In this document: positions 6,014 through 40,794 of the stretch, one piece after another
Numbering within the stretch: the first letter of the stretch is position 1
How the letters are laid out: the number at the start of each line of letters is the position of its first letter
Origin: Candidatus Margulisiibacteriota bacterium
GTDB taxonomy: Bacteria; Margulisbacteria; Marinamargulisbacteria; JBFWNS01
Direction: 5' to 3'
DNA length: 64,000 nt
Assembly: GCA_050250935.1 (NCBI GenBank)
Contig: JBFWNS010000002.1
Location: 67,130 to 131,129, forward strand
Position numbers and translations under genes: made by a program
Notes under the pieces: model-generated
The model's input: the letters and a program-made list of their open reading frames with translations, nothing else
Told to the model about the DNA's origin: nothing
The model's database searches: none

Positions 6014-6048
6014 GACTCAATCCTCTTTAAACAAATAGTAGACACCAA

Positions 6049-6077: not shown

Positions 6078-6170
6078 GCCAAAAACATCCCCCTAGACCT
6101 TGTCCGTCCTGTGGCTTACACTACTCCAGACTTCTGAAGATCCACTTCCTTCACCAATAAGGAGAAATCG

Positions 6171-25100: not shown

Positions 25101-28100
25101 GAGACAACCGTAGGAGAAATTCGGTCCAAGAGTACCGTCACAGCATTGCCGGTTGCGCTGGCATTGCCCAAGGTATTTAAGGCTGTTGCTTTAAAAGTAT
25201 TGGTTCCCTCGGTTAACGAAACCGTGGCCGTGGCCACATTTCCAGACACTGCCAAGGTTTGGATTTGCCCAACAGTGTTCATCAATCGAACGGTTTTTGC
25301 CCCAGGGGCCGAAACCATCAGCACCGCCACAGATTGACTGGTCACTTGAGGCCCCGCCAACGCCATGCTGGGCGTCACAGGACCACTGCGACTCACCACC
25401 ACCTGTACCGGGGTTGTTTCGAATACATTCAAGATCGAGTCTTCCATTCGAATCGTCACCGGATAGGTTCCATCGGGAAGATCATTGGCCCAAGCAGGGC
25501 TCAAAACAAGGGCCGTCGAGGTTCTGTTTTTCAAATCAAACCCATCGGTCAGCAGGATCTTTTTAACCCCACCGACGGTTACGGTTCCATTTAATTTGAG
25601 TTCTGTGGAGAGAAAATCAGCCCGAAACAACACATCACTGGCCACTACCTGGGCATTAAGGGTGATGGTTCCCAAATTGGGGGAATAGGCAATCGGTGAT
25701 GCAAGGCTCAGCACTGGTTTTTGGGCAATCATGGCAAAGGGATATCTTTTGCTTTCTAAAAGCCCCCCATCTTCGGCCGTCACCTCGGCAACAAGTGCAT
25801 AAAGTCCATCGGGCTGAGCCATGCGATTCACATCGTATCCACCCCAGGTTACTGGCAAAGACTGACCCCGTTGCAACTTGGTTTTGGCCAAGGCAGGCAC
25901 CAGAACTTTTCCCCCTTCGGTTTCAACCCGTACTTGGACGTCGACCTGGGATTCTGTTGAATCCACCCCAACGCTGGCATTCAGGACCTCCAAAATGCCA
26001 TCCCCATTGGGGGTAAAAAAGGGCTTTTCCGAGTGGATGGTGGCCGTGCCTTTTACGGCTAGTTTGTAGTCGATATCAAAGACAGATTGAGCTCGATTTT
26101 GAGCCTCGTCAACGGCATAGAGTTGAATTTTATAAGAACCATCCAGGCGATCTGTTTTCCCCGACCCCATCAAATCGGTTAGGGTTAGCGCCGATTTGTT
26201 CACCGACTGGTATCGGGGTTTTTCGTACAGGGTATCCAAGGTTTTTCCTTGAGCATCCAACAACGCAATGCCAAACACCCAAGCAGGATCTATGTCGATA
26301 TTTTGAATCGTAATGGGAAAGCGGTCTTTGCGCAGTTGGGTTCGGGATAACGTGGGATAGAAAACCGGACCTCGGGTTTTGATAATCAAGCGCTTTTTGT
26401 TGGTTACAGGCTCTGCAATCCCTGCTTTATTGGCCTCGGCAACCCAGTCGTAAATCCCGTCTTTGAGGGGAACACCCGAATCGTCTTTACCATCGAAAGT
26501 CAGGGTGTACACACCCGCTTTCATGGGTTTTGAAGGGACCAGGGTTCTTGCGACAGTTCCGCGCTGGGAATCGGTTAGTTTAAGGGATAGGGCGTCGTAG
26601 TCGGTATTGAGGCGTAAATAGAGGGTTAAAGATCCGGTTTGAGGATTCATGGCTTCGGCTGTGGCGTCGATCCACAGGTTGGGGAAGTCGTTGATTTGGC
26701 TGAGGGTTACGGTGGCCGTGCTGGTGTTGTCCGCCAAATCGGTGGCCGTTGCAACCACCTTATATGTTCCTTCAGGCAAATAAACGGAAGGCGACTTTCG
26801 ACCTGTCCACGTTACCGTTGCGGTATCGTGTCGGTTATTCCAAGCAATCTCTGGAATCCACGCTTCCACAGGTTTGTTGTCAGCGCCTATCACCTTCACA
26901 TTCAGCAAAGACAATGGTTCTGAACTGCGGAAAACCAGGTCGGTTTGACCTTGATCGTAGGCTTTAAAGGCCACCGTTTCGGGATGAGTCAGCTCGGGCG
27001 GTGTGGAATCCCACGTTAAGGGCAAAGAAAGGCTGGATTTGATGCCAGATTTGGACAGTGCCGCCACCACCACTTGCCCCACCCCATCAGGTAGGTTATT
27101 TGGAAAAGTTAAGGCTGTTCCACTCTCCCAAGCGCCCAAGGCTACTGGGCTTCCAGAAGCCGGTTGAAATTGAAGCTGAACATCGGTCCATTCAATGGTA
27201 TTTTGAAGGGTCAATTTGACCGGTGTATTCCGGCCAGCCAGGGTCCGGGATAAGGTTGAATCTGCAATGGCCAGGGGTTGATTTTGAATCACCAAATACT
27301 GATTCGGGAAGGCCGGTTGAGCTTGATAAAAGGTCCCCCGCAACACATCGGACACCCACACCTCGGTTTTGAGGGTATAGCCCGCACCATCGGCCCAAGC
27401 CGCCGTGGGTTTAAGGCTAAAAGCCCATTGGGTTTGATTCAATCGGTCATCAAACACGGTGACAACCGGTTTTTCGTCGTTGACGAGGGAGATTTTAAGA
27501 CGAACATCTTGGCTAACAACAGCAGCCAAGGCCGAAACATTAACGGTAACCGTGATGGGCTTTGCAACCGACCCGTATCGGTCCCCAATTTGCCAGACGG
27601 GTGCTGGAAGGGATTGAATCACCGGCAAGGTATTTTGAGTCGACACCGACCACCCTGCCGCATCGGTAACGGTAACACGTAGCGCCACCGAATCGGCTTT
27701 GGTTCGTTGCCCCATCACCAAACCAACAGGGACTGCAACCACAGGGTTGGTTGTAATGGTCTCCCATTCGAAGGTGGGAAGGGCAATTTTATAGATCAGC
27801 GGACTGCCAGAAGCATCGGTGGCTTGGATTGAAACCGTCGCGATACCTGGCTCTAAAAACAAGGGTCGAGGACTGAGGGTGATTCGAGTAATAACCGGAG
27901 GCGCACGGTCGAGTAAAACCTTTACCGAGCCTGTGCTGGTATGTCCAAAACGGTCTACGGCCTGAATGGCCAACACCGTGGTGCCCTCCGGCCAATCTGA
28001 GACATCGAGGGTCATCGGGATTTCTTGGGTTGGGTTGACCGTAACAGATTGTGGGCTTCCTTTGGTGGGAATTAAGGTGACCCGAACCGGACTTTGGTCC

Positions 28101-31100
28101 CAAATTTTAGGGGTGATCTTTAAGGTATTGCTGGTGACACCAAGGGTTTCGGGTAGGCTTATTACGGGCGCTTCTCGGTCGAACAGAAAAGAACCCTGGG
28201 CTGTTTGGGTATTTCCCGCTTTGTCGGTGGCCGTAACCAGATAAAAAATCTGATTAACCTTGGCATCCTCGATCAAGGGTTGTTTTAGAACCGCCCCATT
28301 GGCCAAAAAGGTGATTTGCGTGTTTAAAGTCGTCGAAACGTTGTCCGTGACCTTAATTACAGAGGCCAGATTTTCGGTGGGCAGGGCCGCAAACACGGCA
28401 TTTTCAAACGGTATGAGGATCGTTGGCGGAAGTTGGTCTTGGATCACAGTGCTTGTCCAGGGGGTGCCGGTGTTTCTATAGACATCCTGAAACGTCAGCG
28501 TCCAGGTATATCCCCCATCGGGAGCGCCAGACAAGGGCCAAACCTGAACCCACCGGTTCCCGCTGACCCCGGTTTCCCAAACCGATTTTCCAGCGGCATT
28601 GGTCAATACCAAACGCCCAGTAACCGGTGCCGAAAAACCCAAATCCAAGCTGGAAAAAGTTTTGGCCTTGGGCGAGAACTTAGGCGACACAACATTGGCC
28701 GTTACCAATTGGGGGGGATTCATCACCAAGGCCACATTAAACGTTGCCATCGTGCTTAAATAGCCGTCGGATATTCGGGCAGAGACCCGAACCTCGCCAT
28801 CTTCGGGATGCAAATTTTGCCAGATAGAGAATGGCACATTCAGACGACTCCCAGTCCCAATCGACATGGTTTCGGTCTTGGTCTCGACTTGCCATTGAAT
28901 GTCCAAATTGGCAGAAGACACCCGGTTGTCCCAGGCCGCAACCCCAAAGGTCACGCCTTTTTCAGCCAGACTTTGGTTAATCGTGATGGTTTTACCTTCC
29001 CAAAGTTTTCCCAAGGCCCACTTTTTAACCACCGTCGGGGCTTCATGATCGACCATCACATTTACACTGACAGCAGAACTGTTGCCTGCCATATCTCGGG
29101 TCCATAGCGAGGCAGTAACAGGCCCCACATACGTCTTGGGCAGGGCATCCAGCAAATAATGGACCGCGTCCACCGAAATCGTTATGGTGGGCTGCAGGGC
29201 CTCCCCACTTTGCAAGGGTATGGATAGCGATGCCACCTGTTGTCCGGCTGCCATCAGCCTCAATTGCGCCCGAGACAGCGCGGCATTGTCCGAAAATACC
29301 AAGGTCCAAGGGACCAGGCTTTCTGGATCTGCATACGACCAAAACGCGGGCGCTTTGACCGATACCGTCGGCGGGGTTTGATCCACCACCACCCCAAACT
29401 GAGCTTGAGATTGGTTCAAAGCTTCGTCCAAATAGGTCACATAGAGGGTGTAGCGCCCTTCTGGAACCGCCAGATTGGGTCGCACATCCCGACTGGGAAT
29501 CGCAACATCCACACAGCCATTCCACCTAAAGGTCAAGGGTTGGGACAAATCCGAAACGGACAGCACGGTATTGGCCATTGTTTTTCCGGCCGTATCCGCC
29601 ACCAAAAATCGAACCGTTCCAGCTTCGGAGGGATAAAACGAAAACCGCACCTCGTCCCCTCGCCCATCGCCATTGGGGGAAAACACCACCGTGGTATTCC
29701 CCGACACATAATTGCCCTGAAGCTGGGTCTGAATGAAGGTTGGGGGCGTGGTATCCCGAACCACCGATATTTTGGCATAAGGTCGGTTCAAAATTTTCAG
29801 ATTTCCAGTGGGATAGGTTAAAAAGAAAGTGTTTGGACCTTCCTGCAACGGCACATTAACGAGCTTGAGATTGTAAGACGGATTGCCCTCAAGCCATTGA
29901 ATTTGGTCGGGTTTCAGCTGAATTTGGTTATTTTGGTCCAAGCCCCCCGCATAAAGCGCAAGGCCCAGTGGCATCAGACGGCCATCTTGGGTGACATTTT
30001 TTTCCAAATAACCGTAGAGGGTCACCGTATTGGCGGCTGTTTTGGTTGTTTCAGCGCTAAATTTGGGTTGATCGGGAATCAACCCTTCCAAAGACGCGTA
30101 AATGGAAAAATGGTCCAACTCGGCCGAAATGGTATACAAATCGCCCTTTGAGCCCAAGACGCCGTCGCCATCCAGATCGCTCCACCGTCCACCGGTTGTG
30201 GCTTTGGCTGGGGTTAAGATCCCCGACTCCGAAATGTGATAAATCGCCACATTATCCAAATTTACGGGCTTGCTTAAACCTGGATAGGTTCCTGCTTCGA
30301 TGGCTTTGACCTCGTCGGCTGTGTATTGGTATTTGAGGGTAACGGTTTTATTAAAATTGGCAGAGGCCGTTTCGGGCAAAATTTCGACAATGGGCATGAA
30401 ATCCAAATCTTGTATATCTGGGCTATTCGTAATGTGTAAATCGGCCAAAGCGACTGGGGTAACCGTGATGAGTTTATCTTGGGCAAAGGTTCCGGCAGGG
30501 ATCATCACCTGGACACGGCCATAGGGGCTTTTGACCACGGCGGCTTCGGCCGGGCGTACGGGAGTCCCCACCATCACCCGGGTTAGGGCCACGGTGTTGC
30601 CGTTTTTGAGTCGAATATCTTGCCACCCATTTTTTCGTCCCACATTCCACAACCCCAATCGGCTCCCTGTGGGTTTTGAAATCAACTCAATGGGCTCCCA
30701 AGCCGCTTGGGTTCTGGTACTCAATTCCCAATCAGGATTCAACTGTTGCTTGGCATAAAAGGGCGTATAAAAGGCTTTTTGTTTGGCCGAAGCAATCGAC
30801 ACCGTAAAGCCAGCCCAAAGCGGATCGGCACCCACAACCCCATCACAGCTCAGATCGGGATGCACCCCACCGGTTTCATCAAACAATTTAACCGGCGTCC
30901 ACGAGGTGACTTCCACGTTGGGGTTCACCCCCTCTTTCCAAAACAAGGCCCCAGGCAAATTGGCCGAAACCGGGGGGTATCCCGACTTCACCAATACCGT
31001 ATCCATTTTTTGCTTGCCATTAAAAAGCGGCACTTGAATATCCATCACCAAGCCTTGTAGTTTGCCTTCTTTTGAAACCAAATTGGGATCCTGGGTGGAA

Positions 31101-34100
31101 TCCCAATACTGGCCCCAGACCGGCTTGCTGATGCGAACCACCAAATCGCTGGACAAACTGGTTCCAGGTAAAACCGCCTCGGTCCCATTAAAGACTGCAT
31201 CCAAACTGTTGCTCGACACCGGCCCCGAATTAACCGTCAATGCAGTCACAGACAGCCGATACGAAGACCGGTCCACATTTGCTGGCAACTTGGCGTTTAA
31301 ACTCGGAATTAATGCCGAGGCCACCAAGGTTGTTTTGTACTCGCCTTGGGTGTTGGCACTGGGATAGTTCAAGGCAAACGGAAAAGTAAACTGCCCCGGC
31401 CCATCACTGAGGGCGCCTTGGGGAATCTCGACCCAATACTCGCTGACCCGGCTGAGTTGGCCATTGGGCAGCTCTGGGGATAGGGTCAATCGGTTAATCA
31501 GGGCTTTTTCGTATTGGTTCAACAGTCGGTTCAACATCAAGCGCTTCAGGCTATTGGAGCTGTTAAACGCATCATCACTGCGCTGGTTCAGGGTGGCAAT
31601 CAGTTCCGCGTCCAAGGGATAAGGCACCTGAACTTCGGCCACTTTATCCGTGGCAACGGTGTATTTGGCCTTGGACCGGATATTTTCAGACCCCGCCAAT
31701 GGCGAAGGCACCGGCGAAATGGTGTACCAGCCGCCGGTTTTGCCAGGATCGCTTAAATTCACCACGATCAATTCGAATTTTTCGTCGTCGAGATAATTGT
31801 AATAGCTAGACCCCAGTTTCGAGACCTCGTCCCATTTTTGAAACGGGGTGGTCATCAGTTGGGTGATGGCATCTGTGCTGCCATTTTTGATATCCGCCAC
31901 GTTATAGGCGATCACTTTGTTTAGGTTTTTAATGTAGTCGTCGTAAGGCTGTTCAAAAAAACCGGTTCTTGGAAAACCCAACTGAGAGGGATCTTCCAAG
32001 AACCCCGAAAAATCGATAGCCGCCAGCGGACTGCCTTTTTTGGTCTTGTTCACAATCCCAAACCAGGGCATAAACCGGTTGTTGAGGCGGGAGTATTTCA
32101 TGTCTTCTTCGAGTTGAATATCCGCAGTAAACACATAGTGGTCTCGGTCCAATCGCTCCAAACCACCCTTATAGACAAAGGCGCCTTTTTCCCCAGCTTT
32201 AAAGTTTGGGATTTCGTTGCGCCACCCTTCTGATGCCACATAGTCCTCGTAGTACCCCACAACCTCCGGTTCGATATTCATGGCGTTGATCTTTGAATAA
32301 TATTTTTGGTAGTCCCATGCTGATTTTGGAACATAGATTAGATCGACATCAAATCGTCCAGGTTCAAGAAGCTTGGTATATTTTCGCTTTGTGACTCGGC
32401 TATAGTAGGACAAATCACTGATTGTTTTCTTCTCTATCTCCTTGCCGTCTGGGGTTCGAACACGCACGGTCAACACAATGGATTCTGGTTCGTTAATATC
32501 GTCTTGGCTTTGGGATAAAAAGTGAAAATTCTCAGGGATTTCCAAGGGATAAACCAGGGTGTATTTATTTTGCGAATTTTGCTTAAAGGAAAGTGCTTTT
32601 TCCATAACCCTATGTATCGTGTTGTAATTTTTAATCCACCCTTGCGTGTTAAAAAAGCCATCAGCACGCTCCCAATGACGATACCGAATATCCAGCTCAT
32701 AGGTCACATTCACATTAACCGTCTCAAACCACCGATGCGCCACTGTAACAAAGGGGACATAGGGATAGGCGGTGACGTTTTGCCAGCCATTTTGTAAATC
32801 AACACCCACTTGGCCAGTGATGGGGTCATAGCGGTTTCCTTTTGCTTGGGTTTCCCAAAACACTGCCGTTTTACCTTGAACAATCGGCACCGGCTGGCCG
32901 TTGATGGTTTCCGTTTTAATGTCCATGCTGACCCAGTTGTCCCATTGGGAGGCTGAGGCGCCGGTTTGTTTTAGGGTGAGGGGCAAGGTGATGGTTTTAT
33001 CCCCCACCCCGTCTTCCGCTCTTAGGTTTACATTCAAAACATAATTGCCGGCGGCAGCCAAAAGGCCGTCCTGGTTTTTACCATTCCAGGTAAACGCATA
33101 AGCCCCATCGGCTGTGGTGGGTTGAACGGTTAGTCCGTCTGCAAGGGTCAAGACTTCGGCGCCTTGGCTGTCCCGGACTTTGGCCCTTGCCACAGCCTTC
33201 TTACTGGCGGTGACGTAAACCGTGGCCACATCGCTTTGAGAATAAGGATCGATGGTTAGGGTGGGTAGTCCCAAGGCATCCCCCAAATTCGCCTTGGCTG
33301 TTCCCGCTTTTAACGCAAAGGGTGTTTGCAAGCTAAACGCCGAGGCCGTACTGACCACCGCGTTCGAACTGGGATTTTCCAGGGTCAGTACGGCATCGTA
33401 GCCGCCGCTGTTGGGATATCCGCCATTCAGCCCTTTCCCATCCCAAGAAAAGGTGACGATCGGCTGAACCTGGTTGCTTAACATCACCGGATTCATGAGG
33501 GGATGATTTTTCCCCACCCCCAAATACAGATCCCCGGTTTGCAAGAAATTTTGCTCTTGGCCATCCATCACAACATTCACCATCAACAAAGGATCCGAGA
33601 AGGTTTCAGTCAGATTAAACAACACCCGCCCAAGCGTGGTGATGGTGCCTTCAAACACCACCCCATTGCCCAGGGTTTTAAGTTGGTTGCTGGGAATATT
33701 CACGGTTTGAACCCCAGTTACCTGCCCTTTGAGTGGGGTAACCGTCACCTTAAAGGATTGTGCAGACCCATTGGTTCGCATGGCTATTCCCCATTGTCCA
33801 GAACTGGGGTCTTTATAAATATAGGTCCCGCCACGGTCTGTATAGAGATCCGGCACACCCATGTAGTCCGGTGATGATAAACCCGAATATGTCCGGCTCA
33901 TCACCACTTGCTGCGAGGTTTTGTTGACGATATCAACGGTTAGGTTTCCGCCGCCATTCAGCACCCCCGCTTGAAAGGTTAAGGGCGATTGGGCCACATT
34001 CGTGGTTACTGGTTTTTGAATCCAGGACAGCATGCCCACCCCCGTTGCCGTGGCCGTTTCAACATCTCCAAAAACAGCCAAGGTGATGGTTGTAAAAGCC

Positions 34101-35431
34101 GTTTCCAGGCCATCTTGTGCGACCAGGGCAACGGCATATTCGCCTTCGGCCAAGCCAGCGGTCTGCAAATAGCCCAAACTATCCACCCCACGTATTTCCA
34201 CATTGCCTTCGCTGGAACTTCCTGTTTGGGCAAAGGTCCCTTTTCGGAACCGGGCACTGACGGCTAAAGCTGGATTAGGGGCATAATCGCTCAGCTGATT
34301 GGTGGCCTCCCCTGCCTTAAAAAGCAGCTTGAATTTCTGAAGGGGCTGTCCGTTGGTCAGGTCTGGATCCATCACCAGGCCCCGAATCGCCACCGTCTCG
34401 CCACGGTTAATTTGTTCGTGGTCCAAGGGTGTGGACAGAATGGGCACAGACCCATCTTTAACAATCGCCACCCGTCTCTCGTTTTGATTCCCATAGGCAT
34501 CTTGCACCCGAATCATCACGGTATAACTGCCTTTGGGAAGTCCGGCCAAAGACAGGGTTTGGGTTGACGATTGCCCCGCCTCTAGCACGAGATTTCGGCT
34601 GGTGACAACGGCATTTTTGTCATTCATCACCAAAAGGGTTCCGTTTAAACTTTCGGTTTGACGGGATGTGGGCAGATTGGCCAACACCTGAACCATCACC
34701 ATATCGTCTTGAACGCTGGTCACCACCAGGGGGGTTACCGTTTCGACAATGTCCGGCGCCGTTCTCACAATGGTGATGGAAGAGGTGACCATTGACTCGT
34801 TTCCTGCCTCGTCCTGGATCCCAATTTCAAGGGTATAGACGCCATCTGGCCAATTGGTATCCAGGGTTATATCGGCTTGGTACTGCCAGATTTGGGCATT
34901 TTGCGTTACCTGGGTTTGTCCCAGAGCCATCACCTGCCCCATCGAATCTTTGAGGGTTATGGAGGCCGAGGTTACCTCTGAAGTATTAAAAAAAAGCTGT
35001 AGGTTTCGATCTCCCAAAGCATAAGCCTGGATTCCATTAGTGGCCGCCTTGGCAAACCTAAGCGAGCTGAGGGTCGGTGGGGTTCCGTCGACGAAGAGAT
35101 CACTTTCAATGGTATCTTGGTTGCCAATGGTGTCTTTTAAGGCAATTTTGATTCGATATACCCCATCCTCCAGCGCCGATTGCGGCACCCAGGACAAAGT
35201 CCGAACCCCATAACTGCCCGAAGGTGTTGTCTGTAGGGTTTGAAGGGGGCCTATGGCACTTCTTCCCTGGCCATCCTCAATTCGTTGAAAGGTAATGGCT
35301 TCTTCCTGCCACAGTTTTGTTCCAGAGTCTTCGACAGAATAGGTAAAGTTGAGCGTGGGGATCACAACCGCTGCCTGCGTTATATTTCCTAAAAAAACCA
35401 CAAAGAGCAGCACCCCAAACAAGCGGTTCAT
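13169..35431 (-). CDS. Giant (7420 aa) secreted multi-Ig protein with FlgD-Ig repeats, ZU5-like domain, PA14-like domains and C-terminal YPNPF sorting-like domain
   Basis: Uninterrupted 22.3-kb ORF with a Sec signal (MNRLFGVLLFVVFLGNITQA), dozens of DxxPP...DxAGN Ig-like units, about 10 WxG...G.Y FlgD-Ig motifs, and C-terminal INYPNPF...WNGKDSDG...NGVYLYKI...KLIKLK. Confidence 0.93.
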   Translation of the reverse strand: MNRLFGVLLFVVFLGNITQAAVVIPTLNFTYSVEDSGTKLWQEEAITFQRIEDGQGRSAIGPLQTLQTTPSGSYGVRTLSWVPQSALEDGVYRIKIALKDTIGNQDTIESDLFVDGTPPTLSSLRFAKAATNGIQAYALGDRNLQLFFNTSEVTSASITLKDSMGQVMALGQTQVTQNAQIWQYQADITLDTNWPDGVYTLEIGIQDEAGNESMVTSSITIVRTAPDIVETVTPLVVTSVQDDMVMVQVLANLPTSRQTESLNGTLLVMNDKNAVVTSRNLVLEAGQSSTQTLSLAGLPKGSYTVMIRVQDAYGNQNERRVAIVKDGSVPILSTPLDHEQINRGETVAIRGLVMDPDLTNGQPLQKFKLLFKAGEATNQLSDYAPNPALAVSARFRKGTFAQTGSSSEGNVEIRGVDSLGYLQTAGLAEGEYAVALVAQDGLETAFTTITLAVFGDVETATATGVGMLSWIQKPVTTNVAQSPLTFQAGVLNGGGNLTVDIVNKTSQQVVMSRTYSGLSSPDYMGVPDLYTDRGGTYIYKDPSSGQWGIAMRTNGSAQSFKVTVTPLKGQVTGVQTVNIPSNQLKTLGNGVVFEGTITTLGRVLFNLTETFSDPLLMVNVVMDGQEQNFLQTGDLYLGVGKNHPLMNPVMLSNQVQPIVTFSWDGKGLNGGYPNSGGYDAVLTLENPSSNAVVSTASAFSLQTPFALKAGTAKANLGDALGLPTLTIDPYSQSDVATVYVTASKKAVARAKVRDSQGAEVLTLADGLTVQPTTADGAYAFTWNGKNQDGLLAAAGNYVLNVNLRAEDGVGDKTITLPLTLKQTGASASQWDNWVSMDIKTETINGQPVPIVQGKTAVFWETQAKGNRYDPITGQVGVDLQNGWQNVTAYPYVPFVTVAHRWFETVNVNVTYELDIRYRHWERADGFFNTQGWIKNYNTIHRVMEKALSFKQNSQNKYTLVYPLEIPENFHFLSQSQDDINEPESIVLTVRVRTPDGKEIEKKTISDLSYYSRVTKRKYTKLLEPGRFDVDLIYVPKSAWDYQKYYSKINAMNIEPEVVGYYEDYVASEGWRNEIPNFKAGEKGAFVYKGGLERLDRDHYVFTADIQLEEDMKYSRLNNRFMPWFGIVNKTKKGSPLAAIDFSGFLEDPSQLGFPRTGFFEQPYDDYIKNLNKVIAYNVADIKNGSTDAITQLMTTPFQKWDEVSKLGSSYYNYLDDEKFELIVVNLSDPGKTGGWYTISPVPSPLAGSENIRSKAKYTVATDKVAEVQVPYPLDAELIATLNQRSDDAFNSSNSLKRLMLNRLLNQYEKALINRLTLSPELPNGQLSRVSEYWVEIPQGALSDGPGQFTFPFALNYPSANTQGEYKTTLVASALIPSLNAKLPANVDRSSYRLSVTALTVNSGPVSSNSLDAVFNGTEAVLPGTSLSSDLVVRISKPVWGQYWDSTQDPNLVSKEGKLQGLVMDIQVPLFNGKQKMDTVLVKSGYPPVSANLPGALFWKEGVNPNVEVTSWTPVKLFDETGGVHPDLSCDGVVGADPLWAGFTVSIASAKQKAFYTPFYAKQQLNPDWELSTRTQAAWEPIELISKPTGSRLGLWNVGRKNGWQDIRLKNGNTVALTRVMVGTPVRPAEAAVVKSPYGRVQVMIPAGTFAQDKLITVTPVALADLHITNSPDIQDLDFMPIVEILPETASANFNKTVTLKYQYTADEVKAIEAGTYPGLSKPVNLDNVAIYHISESGILTPAKATTGGRWSDLDGDGVLGSKGDLYTISAELDHFSIYASLEGLIPDQPKFSAETTKTAANTVTLYGYLEKNVTQDGRLMPLGLALYAGGLDQNNQIQLKPDQIQWLEGNPSYNLKLVNVPLQEGPNTFFLTYPTGNLKILNRPYAKISVVRDTTPPTFIQTQLQGNYVSGNTTVVFSPNGDGRGDEVRFSFYPSEAGTVRFLVADTAGKTMANTVLSVSDLSQPLTFRWNGCVDVAIPSRDVRPNLAVPEGRYTLYVTYLDEALNQSQAQFGVVVDQTPPTVSVKAPAFWSYADPESLVPWTLVFSDNAALSRAQLRLMAAGQQVASLSIPLQSGEALQPTITISVDAVHYLLDALPKTYVGPVTASLWTRDMAGNSSAVSVNVMVDHEAPTVVKKWALGKLWEGKTITINQSLAEKGVTFGVAAWDNRVSSANLDIQWQVETKTETMSIGTGSRLNVPFSIWQNLHPEDGEVRVSARISDGYLSTMATFNVALVMNPPQLVTANVVSPKFSPKAKTFSSLDLGFSAPVTGRLVLTNAAGKSVWETGVSGNRWVQVWPLSGAPDGGYTWTLTFQDVYRNTGTPWTSTVIQDQLPPTILIPFENAVFAALPTENLASVIKVTDNVSTTLNTQITFLANGAVLKQPLIEDAKVNQIFYLVTATDKAGNTQTAQGSFLFDREAPVISLPETLGVTSNTLKITPKIWDQSPVRVTLIPTKGSPQSVTVNPTQEIPMTLDVSDWPEGTTVLAIQAVDRFGHTSTGSVKVLLDRAPPVITRITLSPRPLFLEPGIATVSIQATDASGSPLIYKIALPTFEWETITTNPVVAVPVGLVMGQRTKADSVALRVTVTDAAGWSVSTQNTLPVIQSLPAPVWQIGDRYGSVAKPITVTVNVSALAAVVSQDVRLKISLVNDEKPVVTVFDDRLNQTQWAFSLKPTAAWADGAGYTLKTEVWVSDVLRGTFYQAQPAFPNQYLVIQNQPLAIADSTLSRTLAGRNTPVKLTLQNTIEWTDVQLQFQPASGSPVALGAWESGTALTFPNNLPDGVGQVVVAALSKSGIKSSLSLPLTWDSTPPELTHPETVAFKAYDQGQTDLVFRSSEPLSLLNVKVIGADNKPVEAWIPEIAWNNRHDTATVTWTGRKSPSVYLPEGTYKVVATATDLADNTSTATVTLSQINDFPNLWIDATAEAMNPQTGSLTLYLRLNTDYDALSLKLTDSQRGTVARTLVPSKPMKAGVYTLTFDGKDDSGVPLKDGIYDWVAEANKAGIAEPVTNKKRLIIKTRGPVFYPTLSRTQLRKDRFPITIQNIDIDPAWVFGIALLDAQGKTLDTLYEKPRYQSVNKSALTLTDLMGSGKTDRLDGSYKIQLYAVDEAQNRAQSVFDIDYKLAVKGTATIHSEKPFFTPNGDGILEVLNASVGVDSTESQVDVQVRVETEGGKVLVPALAKTKLQRGQSLPVTWGGYDVNRMAQPDGLYALVAEVTAEDGGLLESKRYPFAMIAQKPVLSLASPIAYSPNLGTITLNAQVVASDVLFRADFLSTELKLNGTVTVGGVKKILLTDGFDLKNRTSTALVLSPAWANDLPDGTYPVTIRMEDSILNVFETTPVQVVVSRSGPVTPSMALAGPQVTSQSVAVLMVSAPGAKTVRLMNTVGQIQTLAVSGNVATATVSLTEGTNTFKATALNTLGNASATGNAVTVLLDRISPTVVSASVSSTLLGANQTATASVTFSKPVWVPGGGLVVKGVDMASPSVSVQELLSPTLSVTHRFSLSSPSLNLAGTLSLSLSGVVDQAGNPLQTEIKSVGDVTIGYLMIDTLPPATPSVSAPALVTTSILTLAVADEAGSVLSLSLNGQNVPIQTLPIASGKQVTITGLVEGNNTLQFRSTDAMGNTSDWSPTVSVVMDTTPPVLSLLSAAAGWVSTGYQQVVVTANEALKTVSATFNGTPMTAFGSGVFGIDIRATENQGTASIQFTAQDLAGNTSILAATPFAVDTVPPELNLLPITQQTVSSGSIQVTVNASETLATASVTFNGTPMTSLGAGVYTYAISNSEPQGALTVVVHSKDLAGNESTLTTAPYSVDTIAPSLNAVLNLPSRISTGPIQVTINANESLASLKATLNGTAMTVSGNTLSTTLLQTAHQGPATLVVLAKDKVGNGTELTLIPFEIDTIAPILTLKNTNPAWVKAGTITLGVSVNELIASQSARLNGHPMTPVGEGLWTYTITSSDAQGVATFTATLTDRAGNTSTLTEIPFSIDTVPPSVPQVVTFSPQSNQAQVSVTLLGDVGSELWVSQNGQVASTQVLLTGQAQPWTSLPLKAGENQLSFASRDLAGNQSEWSVPIIITQRFDPAVLQTYRFSANPASVGLWQGTLVFSEPVTVLSAGWTLNQLETPCSLTVSGNTVTVSAAITAGMNGTALLQLSSVQNQAGVTTSVQLPFVIDTTPPKAVTISGIRTVSTGDVVVTLNINEGVSANATFNGHPMTTQSTADNTVRWSYTIGQDEVQGTANIIVTLVDAAGNSAVVTMNTVVVDTVQPQILAMNWNKPISSLGSIEVRVTFSEAVVSPKFTVNGKTIPGVQTGSSSFQLSVPIVGDEVQGMATITTMAKDAAGNGLNDSRQAWVVDTLAPTVSVQADPFRTVGLGWVQVTINASENISTPTVSINGHPMSAVGGGVFGYVVSSADAQGTANFEVRAKDLAGNATVVQISPFVVDTVGPKLSLSPSDSVLVGLGSVTVTVNASETLSSLRASINHQPMTAVGQGVFRYTITPADTQGTADIEVEAVDEVGNQSSVTASVFVVDTVAPSLNLVSMLPNRISTGPIQVMINANEPLLTLTATLNSKAMTVSGNTLSTTILQTEQQGPATLVVSAQDTVGNGTELTLSPFEIDTIAPVLTLQPAAAEAVSTGAIRFEVTVNEPLATVNATLNGKPLEVTIVDSGSIELAGTITAEDNQGLAQLMLLASDTVGNQTVVTATPIRIDTEKPILTLSTPSGRLSTGNVVVTVSANETLSRLSAMLNGFPMSVSGNSLAFTITSTAFQGPATLVVSAQDSVGNGTEETLIPFEIDTIAPTLTLSTNAPAFVSTGPVTVTLTANEALSSQTLWLNNRPMTASGDVFTTIIEATDAQGPAVLLATGIDLAGNTTSQTETLFEIDTLAPTLKLSSEVFQTVSTGTITLTVTTDETLATLNATFNDSPMQALPGGGFQTLILPTAQQGTASVTITATDRAGNTTQLTPVLYGIDTQPPTASIADFPAFISTRAATLQVSAIADASFPVQLEWSLNGGVWQEGPLVQEPGSAAQNVTFATEGTQTLKLRLRDRLGNVSETNTRETITDFTPPQVVSVTVLDSAGQPDPEPLYRSDKTILVTFSEPISSTLATASFGTIALPIQQITTSAVQITITEAQLVGSSAVFELAGIQDQAGNAMAPYAKTYALDLVPPDLKTVTLNTDALPDPTALSQFNTQGLKIAQGYLTAALSFSKPVMNPKVFVAVQGIRKEATWMTVTPNAVSTAEFKVLIKAADLGFLANPNEVDATLEIENARDVAGNLLSPQSLPIVLDMEAPVVTNHGADNGITVDKNDLYYGVIKPYGVSGQQDQLRVWFTLSEPALVSAIQIVQVSPNVLVKTLTNPTKTGPNGDEYSFVWDGKDETGKLVGNAKSQYFYYVTVTAKDKAGNLANQNIDGYISVLHQDTGVRLSSPLPVEPKAPGLDQTVPINYMFSFVDERIRTSADFKALYPNKDFKPFALPSWGTYELRIYPEGQPNQPVLTKQATITAMFSPVSTVWDGRYAADHSVVALRGTLVPDGVYRVEIRATDNAGNGATQNVVANNQMVIDNTPPTITQFALGSAYTNALSIAHTKIAQDNTDSPAQLNFYANGVLVTGPTLPLQAIQGTQTITLQAKDRAGNTSAVATASVVYDSIAPSASILWQNGLASTLPATDREVSTNVAFSVTISEVNLNAVQVAVNGAMVVSANGLYSVNTTGINGTFPVVVTVSDLAGNTTLLNKSLWVDSLAPTVSVSNLAGFMKANSATLNLSGLSDASLPLTLERALNGGSFTVIQTLNSLSPISDGVTFSNEGTQQIAYRLRDRLGNQSETLIRTTVFDATPPTLGADKITGLWTKTAIGAITLSASDALSGLVSAHYRWDNADAANGTTFVASQSITLPAEGSHTLYLTAIDMAGNTQTWSGTYLQDTQTPTVNANKAQAGWSVSPIGSITLTASDPVPGSGLNPNFVMYRWDNSDVVNGSLFSNGQVLSSPGEGSHTLYLKVQDIAGNSTTLWSGSYNQDTQAPVATATQSSSSWQTTAIGNITLSATDALPGSGITTAKYRWDNADVANGTAFVSGQTMTMPAEGSHTLYIQSWDVAGNAGSVWTGTYKQDTQPPVATADKSSGTWKTTAIGNITLTVSDPQPGSGISTSKYRWDNPDVANGTTFVSGQTITIPAEGSHTLYVQSWDVAGNAGAVWTGTYKQDTQAPSGSADKSSLSWSTTALGTITLNTSDPSPGSGVGTAKYRWDNSDVSNGTPYSSGQTTVIPSEGSHTLYIQVWDLAGNAGVVWSGLYKQDTATPQTSANLSNSGWYLFSLGTITLTATDGVPGSGLDPVRTKYRWDNVLVDSGTSFANGTGITVPGEGRHTLYLKAYDTAGNVSGLWTGDYNIDTVPPVVLADKSSSQWSVVPIGTITLSVSDAAPGSGLSGAKYRWDNVAVANGTSFSTGQTLTIPGEGAHTLYLQAWDAAGNASTVWSGPYQQDTQVPVVSANKVQLGWYTTAIGNITLTATDPTPGSGLNPGYVKYRWDNPDVSNGTVFANGQTTAIPSEGTHTLYLQAWDQAFNPSTVWNAVYAQDTQAPVVSAAGSSDQWRTALSGIVVSMTDDGNSGWAYRQYRWNNGPWTDWASGAIPIPGDGDHILALRAGDIATNTGTWQGTYRFDSTAPVIDQVQVTPTVNPVYDGNMVIHFRVSDNLIASMPVQVKIKRQDGSVVKTLLLGQKLNGEVSDVLWDLKTIEGYSPLEGTYNAEIVVSDNVFTTSKTISFRLTYQQDVANYTVAADPVLFRKINNKQWAVVPSDAKVDIALSDDGLSWSPRYSCVTAGKALDVQSDIGPNGGVVVYVLQSDSAQRTKISLPVDYEGFRTRITTLLPGFRLDTYSFTRTGDNRSMTFYAHPMSTRVMLNKQFWLRAEDFDFPTNGQYGAIVKGFIRAPRGQGGLKQFYVSHIGGCRLWINGTLVHSRPEAKEEAVMKKVNMEEEVSYPFILWTDNWDTGGHMDWTFTDVDNSFIPANWFYQDTTEQQSMNEALMSSWMRGIRNVNFEKLLTNSNSRLSYTSFLDDINFYSSTNGGGRGNLASNDWSEYYHFYYFSPQSITPQEHNFLIESDDDETVKVNGTVISAISSHVPGPVPLTIPLQKGLNEMWILHYQSTGPAYLYFKKYLENGTTKVVSKIDTPVYVRLDGEISNGIYATVLPGTTLLGVSSNTTIEVGLDLVSPKNNPTLQTNKPTFTWQVPTYNPALQYRIELKQNWVEPMDSTPFASEDRSQKWDLLPSQIQRTNTTLAFTPLWTDTLAPGWWQWQVVELNPSLNSQAVSSEAGGFYVAPKLQIEGVINYPNPFKDSTKIRYKLSKSVNRLRIQIFTLGGDLIRELEGDTSASSLLAEYHDVSWNGKDSDGRGVLNGVYLYKIIAEGDGETQEVRSKLIKLK
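15464..17935 (-). repeat. Nine tandem ~85-94-aa Ig-like repeats with YRW(D/N)N motif (intragenic)
   Basis: Consensus DTQxPxxxAxKxxxxWxxxxIGxITLxxxDxxPGSGxxxxKYRWDNxDVxNGTxFxxGQTxxxPxEGSHTLYxQxWDxAGN; eight YRWDN copies plus one YRWNN. Confidence 0.9.
20522..24520 (-). repeat. Array of ~88-95-aa Ig-like repeats, second family (intragenic)
   Basis: About 13 copies of DTxAPxL...STGxIxVTxxANExL...LNGxPMT...QGxAT...DxxGN. Nucleotide near-identity (GGGGCAATGGTGTCGATTTCGAA) near 21033, 21567 and 23718. Confidence 0.85.
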
Positions 35432-38298
35432 TTTTGTCCCTTATGCGGGTTATAAACCCCCATTTTCAAAATCTTAATCCGCGGCGGCGTTCTGTCCACC
35501 GAAAACCCATACCGCAAATAACTTTCTGTGTTATACGCATCATGCGCCTTGGCAATGATGGTGTACCGTCCATCGGGCAAACTCGGCAGCGTGTACACCA
35601 GCTCCAACCGGTTCAGGTTGTTCACATTCGGCTGGCTTTTGCGCACCTGGTCTGGGAAGGCCGTGATGATGTTCGTGGTTGGGCTAAAGGGGATGCTTGG
35701 CGTCGGCACCCCTGGGTTTTGAATCGGGTCCACTTGCACATACAACTCGTCGATCGCAATCTTATTCGCCGCTGTGTCGCTGTACTTCATGTTTTGGTAC
35801 ACCAACTTCACTTGGATGGTTTTGTTGTTTGTAATCGAATCCGGTTGCGGGCTCAGTTCGTCCAACACCGGTTGTAGGGTGATGCCGGTTTTGAGGATTT
35901 TGAGGTATTGGTTACTACTATACCCGGCCTGGTTTCGCAGCTTAAACGCCACAATATTTTGACCTTCCGACAACGGAATCGGTCCCAGTTCAAACCGGCC
36001 ATCTTCTTGAATCCTGGACTGTAAATCTGTCCAACCCCCAAAGTTCATGCTGTACTGGGCCACCACTTTTTTGGGCACCAGGTCTTGGATCAGACCCCGC
36101 AAATAGAGTCGTTCTTTATCCGTTGCGATCACCGACAACTTTTGGTCGCCCACCGTCCCATCTGGCCCCTGACCCCTCGGGTCTGCATTGAACAAAATCC
36201 GCTCGGGATCGTCCAACGATGTGGTTTCTTGGTTCAACGTCGCGATCCGCAAAATTTGAAACGTCTCTCCCCCACTGGTTACCGTGATGGGCTGGTACAA
36301 TTCCCCAGCACTGGCGCTAGCCTGGGCATTTTTTGTCACTTCAAAAACTCCTCCCCACAGGATGTTTTGGCTGGCCAGATATTGGCTGTCTTTGAAGGTG
36401 ATTAGAGGGGTGTCGAGTAGGCCTTTGATGATCTCGTCGTGGGCCCCATACATCTCTTGGTGCGCCAAATGATAGTATTGGAATTTCCCCTGCAATTCGA
36501 TGTATTTGCCCGTGATGTAGCTGATGATTCCCAACCGTCCCCCCATCAACACCAATTCTTGGGTCGAGGGACCTCCGTAAATTAGGGCCAAAACCCCAGC
36601 GCCTTCTACTGCCCCCACCATCATGGGCACGGTTTTACCCATCACCTCGTCCCATTCGGGAACATCGAACCGTTTTTCGATGCGCAGTGCGTCTTTGAGG
36701 TGGGCTGTTTTTTCCCCCCTACCCGACCAAACAGGAACTGCCAAATCGCTGTCTTGGGTAAAGGTCAAATACCCTGCAAATTTCCGGGTCCACATCGAGC
36801 TTTCAAATTGGCTCGTTGCACTTCCCAAGCCGGTATACCCGTTGCTTAAAACCTCGGTGGGCACTTCGCTGCTCAATACGGTGCTTAATCCCGCTTTTTT
36901 GAGCAAGGACCGGTAACTGTCTGCAAAACTTAGGGTTGGCAATCCTCGGCCGTACACCAAACTATAGCTCGGCTCTTCCCGTTTATCCGCTTTCTGAACT
37001 TGTTTTAACGCATGCACTACACGCCCCCAACCCTCCTTTGCATCCCCTATTGTATTTAAATTCACCGTACTAAATCCCAAATCCAATTCGTCTGGCACCA
37101 ATTCCAATGCCGCCTGATTCCAACCCCTCGGCTCTCCGCGAATCCCCAACATTGTCTCGATTGGGGCTTTGGAGGCTATCAGCTGCCCAACCAAATCCAC
37201 TTTCTGGATAAACCAATTCGATTCGGTAAAAGGCCACCACGGGTTTTTTACCGTTAACAACGGGTTTTTTAACCGGTTTAACCACAACCCCATCTGGTCT
37301 CCAACATCTTCCCCAGCCTTGGTGTACGTTTTGGCCGGTTCCAATCCCGCTGGACTGTTTAGCCCATTGGCTACCCCAGGCACCACATTATTCAGATTCA
37401 TCCCGGCATTAAACCCCTGCTGCATCTCTTTAACGATACCCCCACCCTGAGCGTAAATTTGAACAATCGGGCTTAAAGGACTCAGCACCGCCAATTCCGA
37501 CCCTTCCGTTGGCGCCGCCACCATCACAGCTTTGACCACGTCGTTTCGGTAAAACCCTTTGGTAAACAACCATTTCCGTTCAGCCAACTCGTTGCTGTAG
37601 ATGTACAACCGTGTACTAAAATTCCCCATTGAATGCGAAATAATGATGTATTTTTTCGGGACGATGCTGGCGGGAATGAGTTCGATGGTCTGATATTTTA
37701 GCCCTCTTGGTTGCGAAGGATCCTTGTTTAAATCACTGGTCAGGTACCACTGCTTCCAATCTTTCACCGCTTGCTCTAAAAAACAATTCCCAGGCTCAAC
37801 CCCTGTGGGAAAATATTGGTCCAAGGCTGGGTTATAGCTGAAATATTCATTGCGCTGGGTTTTATTGTTATAGGCAACATACGGCAATGGATTCCCATCC
37901 AACTGCCGCAACCAAGGTACGTCTTGAACCGCTCCTTTGATGCTATCTGTCCCACTCTCCAAAACCACGTTCCCCTTACGCAGCGGCGCACGAAACCCCC
38001 TATACCCCAACTCCATCGCGTTTTGCAGGTTGGTTCCTCGGCATTGGGTGTAGCTGTAGTTTTGAATATGCCCAAGTGGAATCCCCACCCGATCTCTCAG
38101 CATTTTCACCACATTGGTCCGCTCCCGCTTGGCCGCATCCCATTCGGAGTTGGTCCCGTCAAACGAGTTCTTATAATCGTTGATCCCGTGCACCAAAATA
38201 ATAATATAATCCTGATACGGACTCAGTTTTTGCCCACCCACTGTGACCCCACATAAGACCAACCACATTAAGAGCATCGCCCCCACTTTTTTCATCAT
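35428..38298 (-). CDS. Secreted alpha/beta-hydrolase (PGAP1/lipase-like) with C-terminal Ig-like domains
   Basis: Signal peptide, IILVHGIND, nucleophile elbow SHSMG, APTEGS, SDLAVP (candidate Asp) and LAHQE (candidate His), then Ig units (LSEGQNIV; LPDGRYTIIAKAHDAYN). ATGA overlap with the giant gene. Confidence 0.82.
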   Translation of the reverse strand: MMKKVGAMLLMWLVLCGVTVGGQKLSPYQDYIIILVHGINDYKNSFDGTNSEWDAAKRERTNVVKMLRDRVGIPLGHIQNYSYTQCRGTNLQNAMELGYRGFRAPLRKGNVVLESGTDSIKGAVQDVPWLRQLDGNPLPYVAYNNKTQRNEYFSYNPALDQYFPTGVEPGNCFLEQAVKDWKQWYLTSDLNKDPSQPRGLKYQTIELIPASIVPKKYIIISHSMGNFSTRLYIYSNELAERKWLFTKGFYRNDVVKAVMVAAPTEGSELAVLSPLSPIVQIYAQGGGIVKEMQQGFNAGMNLNNVVPGVANGLNSPAGLEPAKTYTKAGEDVGDQMGLWLNRLKNPLLTVKNPWWPFTESNWFIQKVDLVGQLIASKAPIETMLGIRGEPRGWNQAALELVPDELDLGFSTVNLNTIGDAKEGWGRVVHALKQVQKADKREEPSYSLVYGRGLPTLSFADSYRSLLKKAGLSTVLSSEVPTEVLSNGYTGLGSATSQFESSMWTRKFAGYLTFTQDSDLAVPVWSGRGEKTAHLKDALRIEKRFDVPEWDEVMGKTVPMMVGAVEGAGVLALIYGGPSTQELVLMGGRLGIISYITGKYIELQGKFQYYHLAHQEMYGAHDEIIKGLLDTPLITFKDSQYLASQNILWGGVFEVTKNAQASASAGELYQPITVTSGGETFQILRIATLNQETTSLDDPERILFNADPRGQGPDGTVGDQKLSVIATDKERLYLRGLIQDLVPKKVVAQYSMNFGGWTDLQSRIQEDGRFELGPIPLSEGQNIVAFKLRNQAGYSSNQYLKILKTGITLQPVLDELSPQPDSITNNKTIQVKLVYQNMKYSDTAANKIAIDELYVQVDPIQNPGVPTPSIPFSPTTNIITAFPDQVRKSQPNVNNLNRLELVYTLPSLPDGRYTIIAKAHDAYNTESYLRYGFSVDRTPPRIKILKMGVYNPHKGQK

Positions 38299-38301
38299 GG
38301 T

Positions 38302-39249
38302 CTATTTGATAATCCTTCTATTGGTTCCATCAACATTCACTATTCCAATCCCCTCTTTTGCACCACCCCCATAGTTTGTGTACCCCGTTGTAAACATCAC
38401 CTCTTCCACATTCGTCGGATTTAATGGGTTTGTGGCCAACTGGTGCTCACCATTTATTGGCTCTCCAATCGCTATTGCCGCATCCAGGCTCGGATAGGTT
38501 TCGATTACCGTGAAATCAGAAGTTCGTCTTTTTGCAGTTGTATTTCCTGTCACGCCGCCCAAGAAATAAGTGCCCCCAGGGTAATACTGATCCGCTCCAC
38601 TTGGCATGGCATCATGAATAATGTCGCCAGTCTCGCTAACCATTCGAATCACATTGTTTGGATAGTTGCCATATTGACCGATTATGTTTGGGGCATACTT
38701 CCAACACTGTACCAACCCAAGACTATTCAGGGCACTTACAAACGCCCCATCCCTTGTATAAAGTTTAGCCCCGCCACTCTCGGTTCGAACCACTATCTTG
38801 GTTTCGTCGGGGCTCCAATCAAATTCTCGAATCACGCCGTCGTTTCTTGGAATTTCGATATCACTCACTTTTTGGAAACCCGGATACGACCATACTTCCA
38901 AGCCTATCCCACCCACCGTCACCACATAATTGCCAGACGGCGAGGCATTGGCCCGCATATATTCCTCGTACCCCAACCCCAGAATCTCCCGTTCTCCACT
39001 GCCGTCTGCATTCATGATCACCCAATGGTTTTTCTTGATTTGGCTGTTGCTGCCCCCACCCAGCCCCCCTTGGGTGACCGTCTCGATCCGCTCTCGCGTG
39101 GCCAGGATCTTGCCGTCCGCTGTCCATGCGGGATTGTAGTAGTAGTCCGAGGTTGTGGTTTTTCCGCCGCAGCCTGATAGCACAAATGCAAACAGCAGCG
39201 CCACCACTCCCAATAGTCCCTTTGTTTTTTTGTTTTGCAGTCTTGTCAT
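38302..39249 (-). CDS. Lipoprotein with TolB/PD40-like beta-propeller
   Basis: Lipobox VLSG-C; NPAWTADG, MNADGSGEREI, ASPSG, WSPDETKI, VNVDGTNRRI. Confidence 0.8.
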   Translation of the reverse strand: MTRLQNKKTKGLLGVVALLFAFVLSGCGGKTTTSDYYYNPAWTADGKILATRERIETVTQGGLGGGSNSQIKKNHWVIMNADGSGEREILGLGYEEYMRANASPSGNYVVTVGGIGLEVWSYPGFQKVSDIEIPRNDGVIREFDWSPDETKIVVRTESGGAKLYTRDGAFVSALNSLGLVQCWKYAPNIIGQYGNYPNNVIRMVSETGDIIHDAMPSGADQYYPGGTYFLGGVTGNTTAKRRTSDFTVIETYPSLDAAIAIGEPINGEHQLATNPLNPTNVEEVMFTTGYTNYGGGAKEGIGIVNVDGTNRRIIK

Positions 39250-39462: not shown

Positions 39463-40788
39463 TTAAAAAAAATAGGTCAGTACAACTTGCAAAGAAGTTC
39501 CACCCCAGGCCTTTTGCCCTGAAGACCCAGAGCCTGCCCCATCAGTCGAAGAGGTATCTGATGCAGGCTCGTTGGATGAGGCCTCCACCGTTTTGCTCCA
39601 CAGCGGAATCCATTGCGAAAGCCCCGTTTTTAGCTCTATCGAAGAGCCTATCTGCCACTTTTTAACCAACGAGATTTGGGCCAAATACACCCATTCCAGA
39701 CTCAGAGGCGCGGATCTTTCAAAATGATTGCCTACCAAAATTCGAGAATATTGGTCTATCGCACCGGCCCCCTCCATTTTGGATAGGGTGCACGCCAGCT
39801 CCCAATCGGATGCACGATAATTTCCTTGCACGCTATACTCTCTAAACGCTGCAGCAGGAATTGAATAAGCCGAAGTTCCAAAGCCATCCCAGGGCGGGGA
39901 GAGCCCATTACTGGTTTGGGCATAGCCGCGGGTTAGATCGGATCTTTTGTAGCCCAACCGTAACCCCAAAGAAGCCAATTCCCAATCCAAACTGGCTTCT
40001 TCAGACTCCAAAATTCCCTCCCCACTCAGCATTTCTTTGCCACTATAAACGGCTCCAAGCTTGAACTCGGTGGGCTCGCCTCTGCTATAGATGGCTTGCC
40101 AAGCACCAGTGTCGGTCTGCACTTTACAACCCAGCGTTAAAAACCTTGGTTCAAAGTTGCCGTTAAGTTGGTTTTGAGCACTTGATTCTCCACCCCACTG
40201 ATACACCCGACGCCCAGAACCCGCTTGAACTTGAATCCATTCATTAAGAGAAACCCCAACACCCACCTCGACATGGGCCAGGGTTTCGATGGGCTTAAAA
40301 ATCGCAACACTGTCTCCATTCGAAACAGAAAGAAATCGGTCCTGATTGTCTGTCTTTTCTGACCCATAAATTTCGATGGGCCCCAAAAAGAGCTTACCGC
40401 CGATCTCGTGAGATGGAAAATCGAGTCCAGAGGTGAGGCTATGGGTCGAAAAATATCCGCCCCACCCCTGCCACCAGGTCCCATCAAAGTGGGACCAGAC
40501 CCCGAGTTTTTTGGATTCCGAAGACAAGTGAACCTGAGTCTGAGGATCCCTAAAATCAAATTGATCGTTTGTCTGCACGTGAAGAATTCGAATTCTTCCA
40601 ATTTCTCCCCCAAAGCCCATCTCGGACTGAACCGTCTGGACCTGTCGCCAGCACTGGGTTTTAGAATCCTGAAACAACAGATCATGGGACAGATCTACCG
40701 CCAAAAAAGACCTATCTTGAGACCAAGCGGCCAACGAGATAAACACGCAGCAGCCGGCTAGAACACCGGCTGCACAAAACTTATTCAT
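39463..40788 (-). CDS. Putative outer-membrane beta-barrel protein
   Basis: Signal peptide, alternating amphipathic strands rich in G/W/Y, and C-terminal beta-signal LQVVLTYFF. Confidence 0.65.
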   Translation of the reverse strand: MNKFCAAGVLAGCCVFISLAAWSQDRSFLAVDLSHDLLFQDSKTQCWRQVQTVQSEMGFGGEIGRIRILHVQTNDQFDFRDPQTQVHLSSESKKLGVWSHFDGTWWQGWGGYFSTHSLTSGLDFPSHEIGGKLFLGPIEIYGSEKTDNQDRFLSVSNGDSVAIFKPIETLAHVEVGVGVSLNEWIQVQAGSGRRVYQWGGESSAQNQLNGNFEPRFLTLGCKVQTDTGAWQAIYSRGEPTEFKLGAVYSGKEMLSGEGILESEEASLDWELASLGLRLGYKRSDLTRGYAQTSNGLSPPWDGFGTSAYSIPAAAFREYSVQGNYRASDWELACTLSKMEGAGAIDQYSRILVGNHFERSAPLSLEWVYLAQISLVKKWQIGSSIELKTGLSQWIPLWSKTVEASSNEPASDTSSTDGAGSGSSGQKAWGGTSLQVVLTYFF

Positions 40789-40794
40789 TAAAAC

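Follow-up and report, generated by a model that had tools for sequence, protein, structure and literature searches.

A split immunoglobulin-like domain suggests docking of a lipase-like head on a giant stalk protein in Margulisbacteria

Introduction

In chaperone-usher pili, subunits assemble by donor-strand complementation. An N-terminal extension supplies the last strand, and subunits that carry both donor and acceptor polymerize. Here we analyze a stretch of 64,000 nucleotides (the window) from a Candidatus Margulisiibacteriota bacterium (assembly GCA_050250935.1, contig JBFWNS010000002.1, positions 67,130 to 131,129), in which an immunoglobulin (Ig)-like domain is split between the genes of a secreted lipase-like protein, the head, and a giant Ig-repeat protein, the stalk. 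We hold with moderate confidence that a single ancestral gene, split after strand A, gave rise to both genes, and that the separately secreted lipase docks on the stalk tip through its C-terminal strand. This view rests on sequence comparison and predicted models. The window's own genome (G000) measures 1.95 Mb in 17 contigs (C1, C2, C3 and so on) and is 95.85% complete.

The proposed joint resembles chaperone-usher pili and the WxL/Elr pilus of Enterococcus (bioRxiv 10.64898/2026.10.17.759780). In each case an Ig-like fold that is short of one strand takes up a strand from a second secreted protein, and an invariant attachment module at the fiber tip bears variable payloads. Unlike in those pili, the donor here would be a strand at the cargo's C-terminus, and it would supply strand A. 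The stalk is a single polypeptide with one joint and no polymer, the head being donor only and the stalk acceptor only. Fused ancestors are still common, so the fission origin is visible. Neither a PapD-like chaperone (PF00345) nor an usher (PF00577) was matched in G000, while the controls were matched.

Polymorphic toxin systems such as CdiA, Rhs and MafB provide a second comparison. These systems (reviewed in PMC4436062) share with the present locus a long carrier with a variable enzymatic domain, an adjacent small gene in each cassette, and orphan cassettes with a recombination-prone shared region. Recombination between orphan modules and the full gene has been described for them (PMC4436062). 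Their toxin is C-terminal and the immunity gene lies directly downstream, whereas here the variable domain is N-terminal and the conserved small gene is upstream. In addition, the orphans here keep signal peptides, heads could be swapped at the protein level, and toxicity is putative. A third comparison is SiiE. Its type I calcium site combines one Asp from the preceding domain (linker) with two Asp from the following domain (PMC5466336). The BIg repeats of SiiE and the domains studied here have the linker Asp and the two Asp of the next domain in common. SiiE is one chain, secreted by a type I secretion system and without a hydrolase head, whereas here the site would span two gene products.

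Giant proteins are frequent and uncharacterized in Margulisbacteria, according to two surveys (PMC11573180; bioRxiv 10.1101/2023.11.21.568195). The passages of these surveys that were covered contain no mention of a lipase head or a split domain, and the word 'lipase' occurs 0 times in the main text of the preprint. A study of DDxP proteins (PMC7730722) deals with other repeats. No description of this giant/lipase family or its split was found in the literature covered, most subscription journals and supplements lying outside it. If our reading is correct, simple gene fission gave rise to donor-strand complementation on more than one occasion, the fused and the split state coexist within one phylum, and strand complementation serves to swap enzyme heads on one giant protein instead of building a pilus. 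It would give a family of uncharacterized Margulisbacteria giant proteins its first testable function. It would also provide a natural 22-residue tag and 91-residue catcher, accessible as two small recombinant fragments.

The domain at the gene boundary

All window features described here are on the minus strand. The lipase-like head of 956 aa (35428..38298) is secreted and composed of a signal peptide, a hydrolase domain, a conserved Ig-like C-terminal third and a tail. Its open reading frame (ORF) ends with FSVDRTPPRIKILKMGVYNPHKGQK, and the stop codon overlaps the start of the giant ORF in ATGA. The tail (residues 935-956; 35431..35496) contains the linker D935-x-x-P-P939, strand A with I941 and I943, and the A'/loop motif YNP. 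Thus, the lipase ends just after the start of an Ig unit, as the original prediction stated. Among the 118 other Ig-repeat proteins returned by the searches, many of them partial, none has a tail-type ending (DxxP and a strand), and among 1,523 ORFs examined in G000 this ending is found only in four lipase copies. These counts argue that the ending is not due to chance.

The giant stalk protein of 7,420 aa (13169..35431) contains Big_13, Big_3 and FlgD_ig matches in Pfam, including FlgD-Ig domains. It begins with a signal-peptide-like stretch of 20-21 residues (residues 1-20; 35372..35431), recognized on inspection and from its hydropathy, which peaks at 3.24 across 9 residues. This agrees with the separate signal peptide that the original prediction placed between the halves. 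This stretch is missing from fused homologues and appears to have been gained at the cut. Its hydrophobic core is unaltered in strain X3/X5, with codon effects read by hand. The sequence continues with IPTLNFTYSVED...DGVYRIKIALKDTIGN, the mature part opening with PTLNFTYSVED. The first Ig-like domain of the giant, the candidate acceptor (residues 24-114; 35090..35362), contains strands B to G only and keeps D35 and D100. The second (residues 115-226; 34754..35089) is complete.

An AlphaFold model of giant residues 24-226 (mean predicted local distance difference test score, pLDDT, 86.6) shows a first domain of six strands and a second of seven. This bears out the claim that the mature giant begins in the middle of a domain without a first strand. 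In the model of a natural fused fragment from genome G007, an extra strand (111-115) and a short strand (118-120) precede those six. The cut therefore lies after A and A'. An acceptor that is short of one strand, as donor-strand complementation calls for, is thus seen in the predicted models, with six strands alone and a complete domain when fused. The candidate donor strand with alternating hydrophobic residues is on the other chain. Compared column by column with 31 fused homologues, the tail matches at D and P in 31/31 each, and its I941 and I943 fall in columns occupied by I/V/L in 31/31 and I/M/V/L in 30/31. In the fused model, the lipase head's last domain contains an A strand as well. 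Fold searches returned generic Ig-like matches only, and the best VIA-align matches (Z 8-10) fall on the second domain of the giant.

The two halves joined also correspond to an internal unit, KPVLSLASPIAYSPN at giant residue 3238, as predicted. The proposed start motif of the Ig units stands in part. DxxP followed by a strand is general, with 31 DxxxP linkers in the giant. (Y/F)SPN was rejected as a general unit motif, as the giant contains only two (Y/F)SP(N/D) motifs.

Fused relatives

The original prediction suggested looking for fused homologues, and these were found in number. Lipase matches were present in 13/61 genomes searched, mostly within open frames of thousands of residues. The tail reads in frame into the giant's first domain in all nine loci that reach the junction (L006 ended before it). 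In G007, for example, DTEAPSVTVTGSVAFNPDRG is followed directly by PLSVGYTVAD, and P0003 is fused as well. A search of the phylum matched 47/146 genomes, and its 35 best loci, a selection that favored full-length matches and includes duplicates, show the fused state. Over all fetched loci, 101 fused rows reduce to 42 distinct forms. Six complete fused giants of 4,446-7,779 aa were found among 150 listed representatives (the best 150 of 104,527, alignment A4). Each has a hydrolase head and an unbroken domain and shares its C-terminal domain with the G000 giant.

In relatives across Margulisbacteria, head and stalk usually form one ORF. By this comparison, the lipase and giant genes are two halves of one ancestrally fused gene, separated by fission. 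Generic Ig-repeat proteins dominate the matches of the representative search and of a search for longer proteins with alignment A5, and in both, within the same best 150 for A4, the head-first giants are those of G000 and G143 only. Genome and metagenome scans with alignment A7 gave Saganbacteria-type sequences only, among the matches listed. Scans of genome and metagenome contigs with the tail region of G000 itself found no relative. G000 belongs to a class within Margulisbacteria different from that of most loci of the family, which are mainly Saganbacteria/WOR-1. In G054:C16 (L004:1462-3192), a fused-type gene has shrunk to a 576-aa piece without the hydrolase and most of the stalk.

Recurrence of the cut

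Split giants were also found in two other genomes. In G144, a lipase ends with DTKPPNITFTMKQVRKK. Its gene likewise overlaps the beginning of a giant, in which a signal peptide precedes STPPELFSPVDNNTLTLTY. The G143 giant opens with a signal peptide followed by TLEAFSAKKPLIIKF and has no upstream lipase, and on a different contig of G143 a lipase (L056:3982-6495) ends with DTKPPEIEISF. In both split giants the signal peptide is located directly ahead of strand B or the A-B loop. Genome G142 belongs to their family and has the fused form.

On a 38-row tree of the stalk start, the three split giants correspond to three changes. A single origin of all three was rejected (approximately unbiased test, p-AU 0.004), and a joint origin of G143 and G144 was not (p-AU 0.075), both with 21 of the 38 rows. 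The branch of G000 is long and its exact placement unsure, and it lies outside the supported Saganbacteria clade. Since a single origin is rejected and G000 lies outside that clade, the trees indicate that a cut at the same site arose at least twice, once in G000 and once in G143/G144.

Several heads and one acceptor

G000 contains four tails: that of the window locus (C2), that of a complete paralogue on C3, and those within the first 269 bases of C5 and C6. All four end at the same codon, and only the window copy then runs into a giant. No second head-first acceptor was found among the 1,523 ORFs. The suggestion to look for other cargo genes with the same tail led to the three further lipase copies and to no unrelated enzyme among these ORFs. 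The modular loading of cargo is supported by the comparative pattern, in which several heads keep the tail, and the cargoes found are lipase paralogues rather than different cargo types.

The 3' parts of the G000 copies have 93-94% nucleotide identity. Over the last 335 codons, C2 and C3 differ at 55 synonymous and 11 non-synonymous positions, and the proteins are nearly identical over the last 330 residues. Their hydrolase parts are strongly diverged, with large indels. Over its last 69 nucleotides, the window tail shows 9-10 differences from the other three, which show 1-2 among themselves. In the protein this gives F for L at 944, I for M at 946 and R for K at 956, all conservative and without a shift in register.

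G144 also has four tails, so both genomes with an adjacent split giant (G000, G144) have several heads. Among closed, stand-alone lipase genes from the fetched loci, 16/37 distinct ends fall 11-24 residues past the linker Asp. Each of these tails keeps the complete strand, and strand B is reached in none. The other 21 are spread over positions 120-807 of the 831-position profile. Before merging at 97%, these closed ends were 35 and 30 rows. The count leaves out 25 distinct rows cut by contig edges, and the 21 include some leading halves of interrupted genes and some copies from assemblies that are close relatives of each other. A further four lipase pieces, truncated by contig ends (L125, L137-L139), belong to the same assembly as L123 and L124. 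Seven of 48 rows were left out of the lipase tree because they were short or redundant; on the resulting 41-row tree, the nine tail-ending rows correspond to five changes and cluster with the copies of their own genome. The tail-ending copies keep signal peptides and are under purifying selection.

Aspartates of the predicted interface

Three Asp residues, D935 of the lipase and D35 and D100 of the giant, are Asp in 31/31 fused rows, and the halves in G143 and G144 keep them as well. The best sequence match in the PDB for a profile of three domains is SiiE (PDB 2yn3, E 7e-12), and the Asp positions align. In Foldseek, SiiE is found at ranks 9-10 with a template modeling (TM) score of 0.43-0.51. 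The alignment suggests that the three Asp of a SiiE-type interdomain calcium site are kept across two chains, and calcium binding is predicted. An acceptor without an upstream partner would have little reason to retain its Asp pair on a long branch.

The head enzyme and its lipoprotein

The variable alpha/beta-hydrolase domain of the lipase covers residues about 25-632. The motifs HG, HSxG, DGD and AH are invariant in 9/9 homologues (alignment A7) and are all present in the window lipase (HG 37-38, S223, D518, H613). We take these to be, in order, the oxyanion HG, the Ser at the nucleophile elbow, the Asp and the His. Pfam matched no hydrolase family in the window lipase, and PGAP1 was matched in 1/9 homologues (1.2e-6). 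The nearest Atlas clusters are PGAP1/DUF676/LCAT at 0.91-0.94, the value of 0.94 with 182 shared features.

A lipoprotein of 315 aa (38302..39249), a candidate immunity protein, is encoded upstream of the lipase. A paralogue with 36% identity is located upstream of the C3 copy, and a third starts at the end of contig C1. Homologues are present upstream of lipase genes in many fetched loci, and one homologue matches PD40. The heads are probably lipid-attacking, antibacterial toxins, each with a putative upstream immunity lipoprotein. The variable secreted hydrolase, the variable lipoprotein and the orphan cassettes may work like a polymorphic toxin locus of reversed polarity. In L163, L165-L169, L136, L104 and L127, tandem lipoprotein-lipase cassettes are truncated at scattered points, like orphan toxin-immunity modules with an N-terminal toxin.

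Proposed mechanism and alternatives

A fused ancestor was cut after strand A, the giant gained a signal-peptide-like start, and G000 has four tail copies and one acceptor. In the models the acceptor lacks strand A, and the lipase tail is predicted to fill its groove. A calcium ion would link D935 in the head with D35 and D100 in the stalk, in the manner of the SiiE type I site. Head and stalk would cross the inner membrane by Sec and pair in the periplasm, and the head would be carried out on the stalk. As the heads vary in the hydrolase, one costly stalk of 7,420 residues could carry any of several enzymes. Docking and modular loading are suggested by the repeated cut at the same strand, the multi-copy heads that keep the tail and the conserved interface Asp. 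The original prediction had posed docking and fission as alternatives. Fission is established by the fused relatives and docking is backed by the comparative pattern, and the evidence fits both rather than one or the other.

The C-terminal domain of the giant (about 13172-13468), common to full-length fused homologues, resembles the C-terminal domain (CTD) of the type IX secretion system. It matched Por_Secre_tail with E 3.3e-5 and 24.5 bits, below the cut-off of 27. The lipase head has no CTD-like domain of its own. The SprA_N profile matched nowhere, including the controls.

A broader picture is more tentative. Here the locus would be a plug-and-socket toxin display, in which giants are repeatedly cut, strand A serves as a calcium-locked plug, and a library of lipase-immunity pairs is loaded post-translationally and exported with one stalk. 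In lineages with fused giants, the plug would serve a dedicated adaptor or exchange after nicking of the A-B loop.

Several observations weigh against docking. The sole lipase found in G143 is broken by an in-frame stop in the middle of the gene, a tail-ending lipase (L161:1332-3778) is frameshifted, and the assembly lacks the N-terminal parts of the lipases on C5 and C6. The 21 distinct heads end at scattered points, as silent cassettes would. Tail-ending heads are found in G142 and G137, whose only orthologous giant found is fused, and in G134, in which no orthologous giant was found (89% complete, 250 contigs). PorV had 0 matches in G000, with the control matched. AlphaFold folds the six-stranded domain confidently alone; its alignment came from fused forms, so this has little bearing on stability. 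Finally, nine of the 15 tail-ending genes examined are followed by a different conserved secreted gene of about 360 aa (alignment A8).

An alternative that we consider unlikely is that the stand-alone lipases are orphan polymorphic-toxin cassettes, their heads swapped by DNA recombination through the shared 3' third, and the cut a tolerated fission without binding. Tandem cassettes with scattered, junk ends, the high nucleotide identity of the 3' parts in G000, and the clustering of copies by genome, as gene conversion would yield, are all consistent with it, and recombining orphan modules have precedent (PMC4436062). It leaves unexplained that 16/37 ends fall within a 14-residue window after a complete strand, that three giants in at least two lineages have a signal peptide at the same loop, and that the acceptor retains two calcium-site Asp. 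The tail-ending copies also keep signal peptides and show purifying selection, and recombination is compatible with docking.

It is rather improbable that the tail is a functional strand with a different partner, such as the A8 protein in Saganbacteria, another head or the last domain of its own head, and that domain 1 of the giant is completed by another protein or stable with six strands. The A8 genes directly behind tail-ending lipases of Saganbacteria are L119:8444-9529, L129:8282-9277, L131, L154, L157, L160, L161, L162 and L164. Their protein contains an Ig-like domain and a weakly LolA-like remainder and belongs to no Pfam family, and all Atlas leads for it were under 0.9. The lipase's last Ig domain is similar to its N-terminal domain (hhalign probability 92%). 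It may be a second partner of the tail, a chaperone or an immunity protein, and the tail of A8-linked heads may thus have a partner other than the giant, which would speak against docking there. Strong A8 matches are present in few genomes (5/146: G142, G134, G137, G139, and G144 as an inverted fragment), and none was found in G000 or G143 in this search. The acceptor profile gave no match to A8. By eye, the Ig domain of A8 includes a first strand, in a part outside the hhalign alignment. The A strand modeled in the head's last domain likewise argues against pairing there.

It is very improbable that the halves dock but the adjacent lipase alone is loaded, the unlinked copies being secreted free or decaying. 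The nucleotide divergence of the window tail from the other three would fit this. The differences are conservative and in register, however, and the G143 giant has no adjacent lipase.

That an assembly or sequencing artefact masks a single fused ORF, for which the collapsed repeat that adjoins the junction and inside which contigs C5 and C6 start would speak, is practically untenable given gap-free bridging contigs from two studies and a hydrophobic, signal-peptide-like insert between the halves that no fused form contains. Run X1, which may be the source sample, yielded a 28.5-kb contig that spans 33500-35521 with zero differences. A contig of run X3, from another study and with a depth of about 4, bridges 35171-35487 with 13 substitutions in 317 nucleotides and no gap. 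As both cross the junction without indels, the split is not an assembly slip, and the single fused ORF that the original prediction had allowed for in the reads is contradicted. A run X5 contig ends at the junction and run X7 yielded no contig there, so that neither speaks for or against the split. The summed contig depth over the tail is several times that of the flank, which is not a copy number.

Neighboring genes and related proteins

Other proteins have the same CTD-like end. In G000 these include two subtilase-like proteases (C2:140486-142102 and C3:220356-222728), and further examples are L056:6983-9588 and L127:2-3197. In these relatives (L056, L127), the CTD protein is followed by a gene that is PorV-like by eye. 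A second giant Ig-repeat protein of 5,758 aa (C9:36858-54134) has the same CTD-like end and no hydrolase head, and it gave no match to the head-first acceptor. It is followed by a Rhs-like gene of 1,817 aa (C9:55188-60641), a near-identical start of which is found on C10.

Upstream of the cassette, window positions 39463-42990 encode a secreted protein of 441 aa that resembles an outer-membrane barrel and a lipoprotein of 731 aa. Both are single copy in G000 and have no Pfam match. Within the giant, residues about 5830-6660 (window about 15450-17940) form near-identical Ig repeats with a YRWDN motif, which suggests a recent internal amplification.

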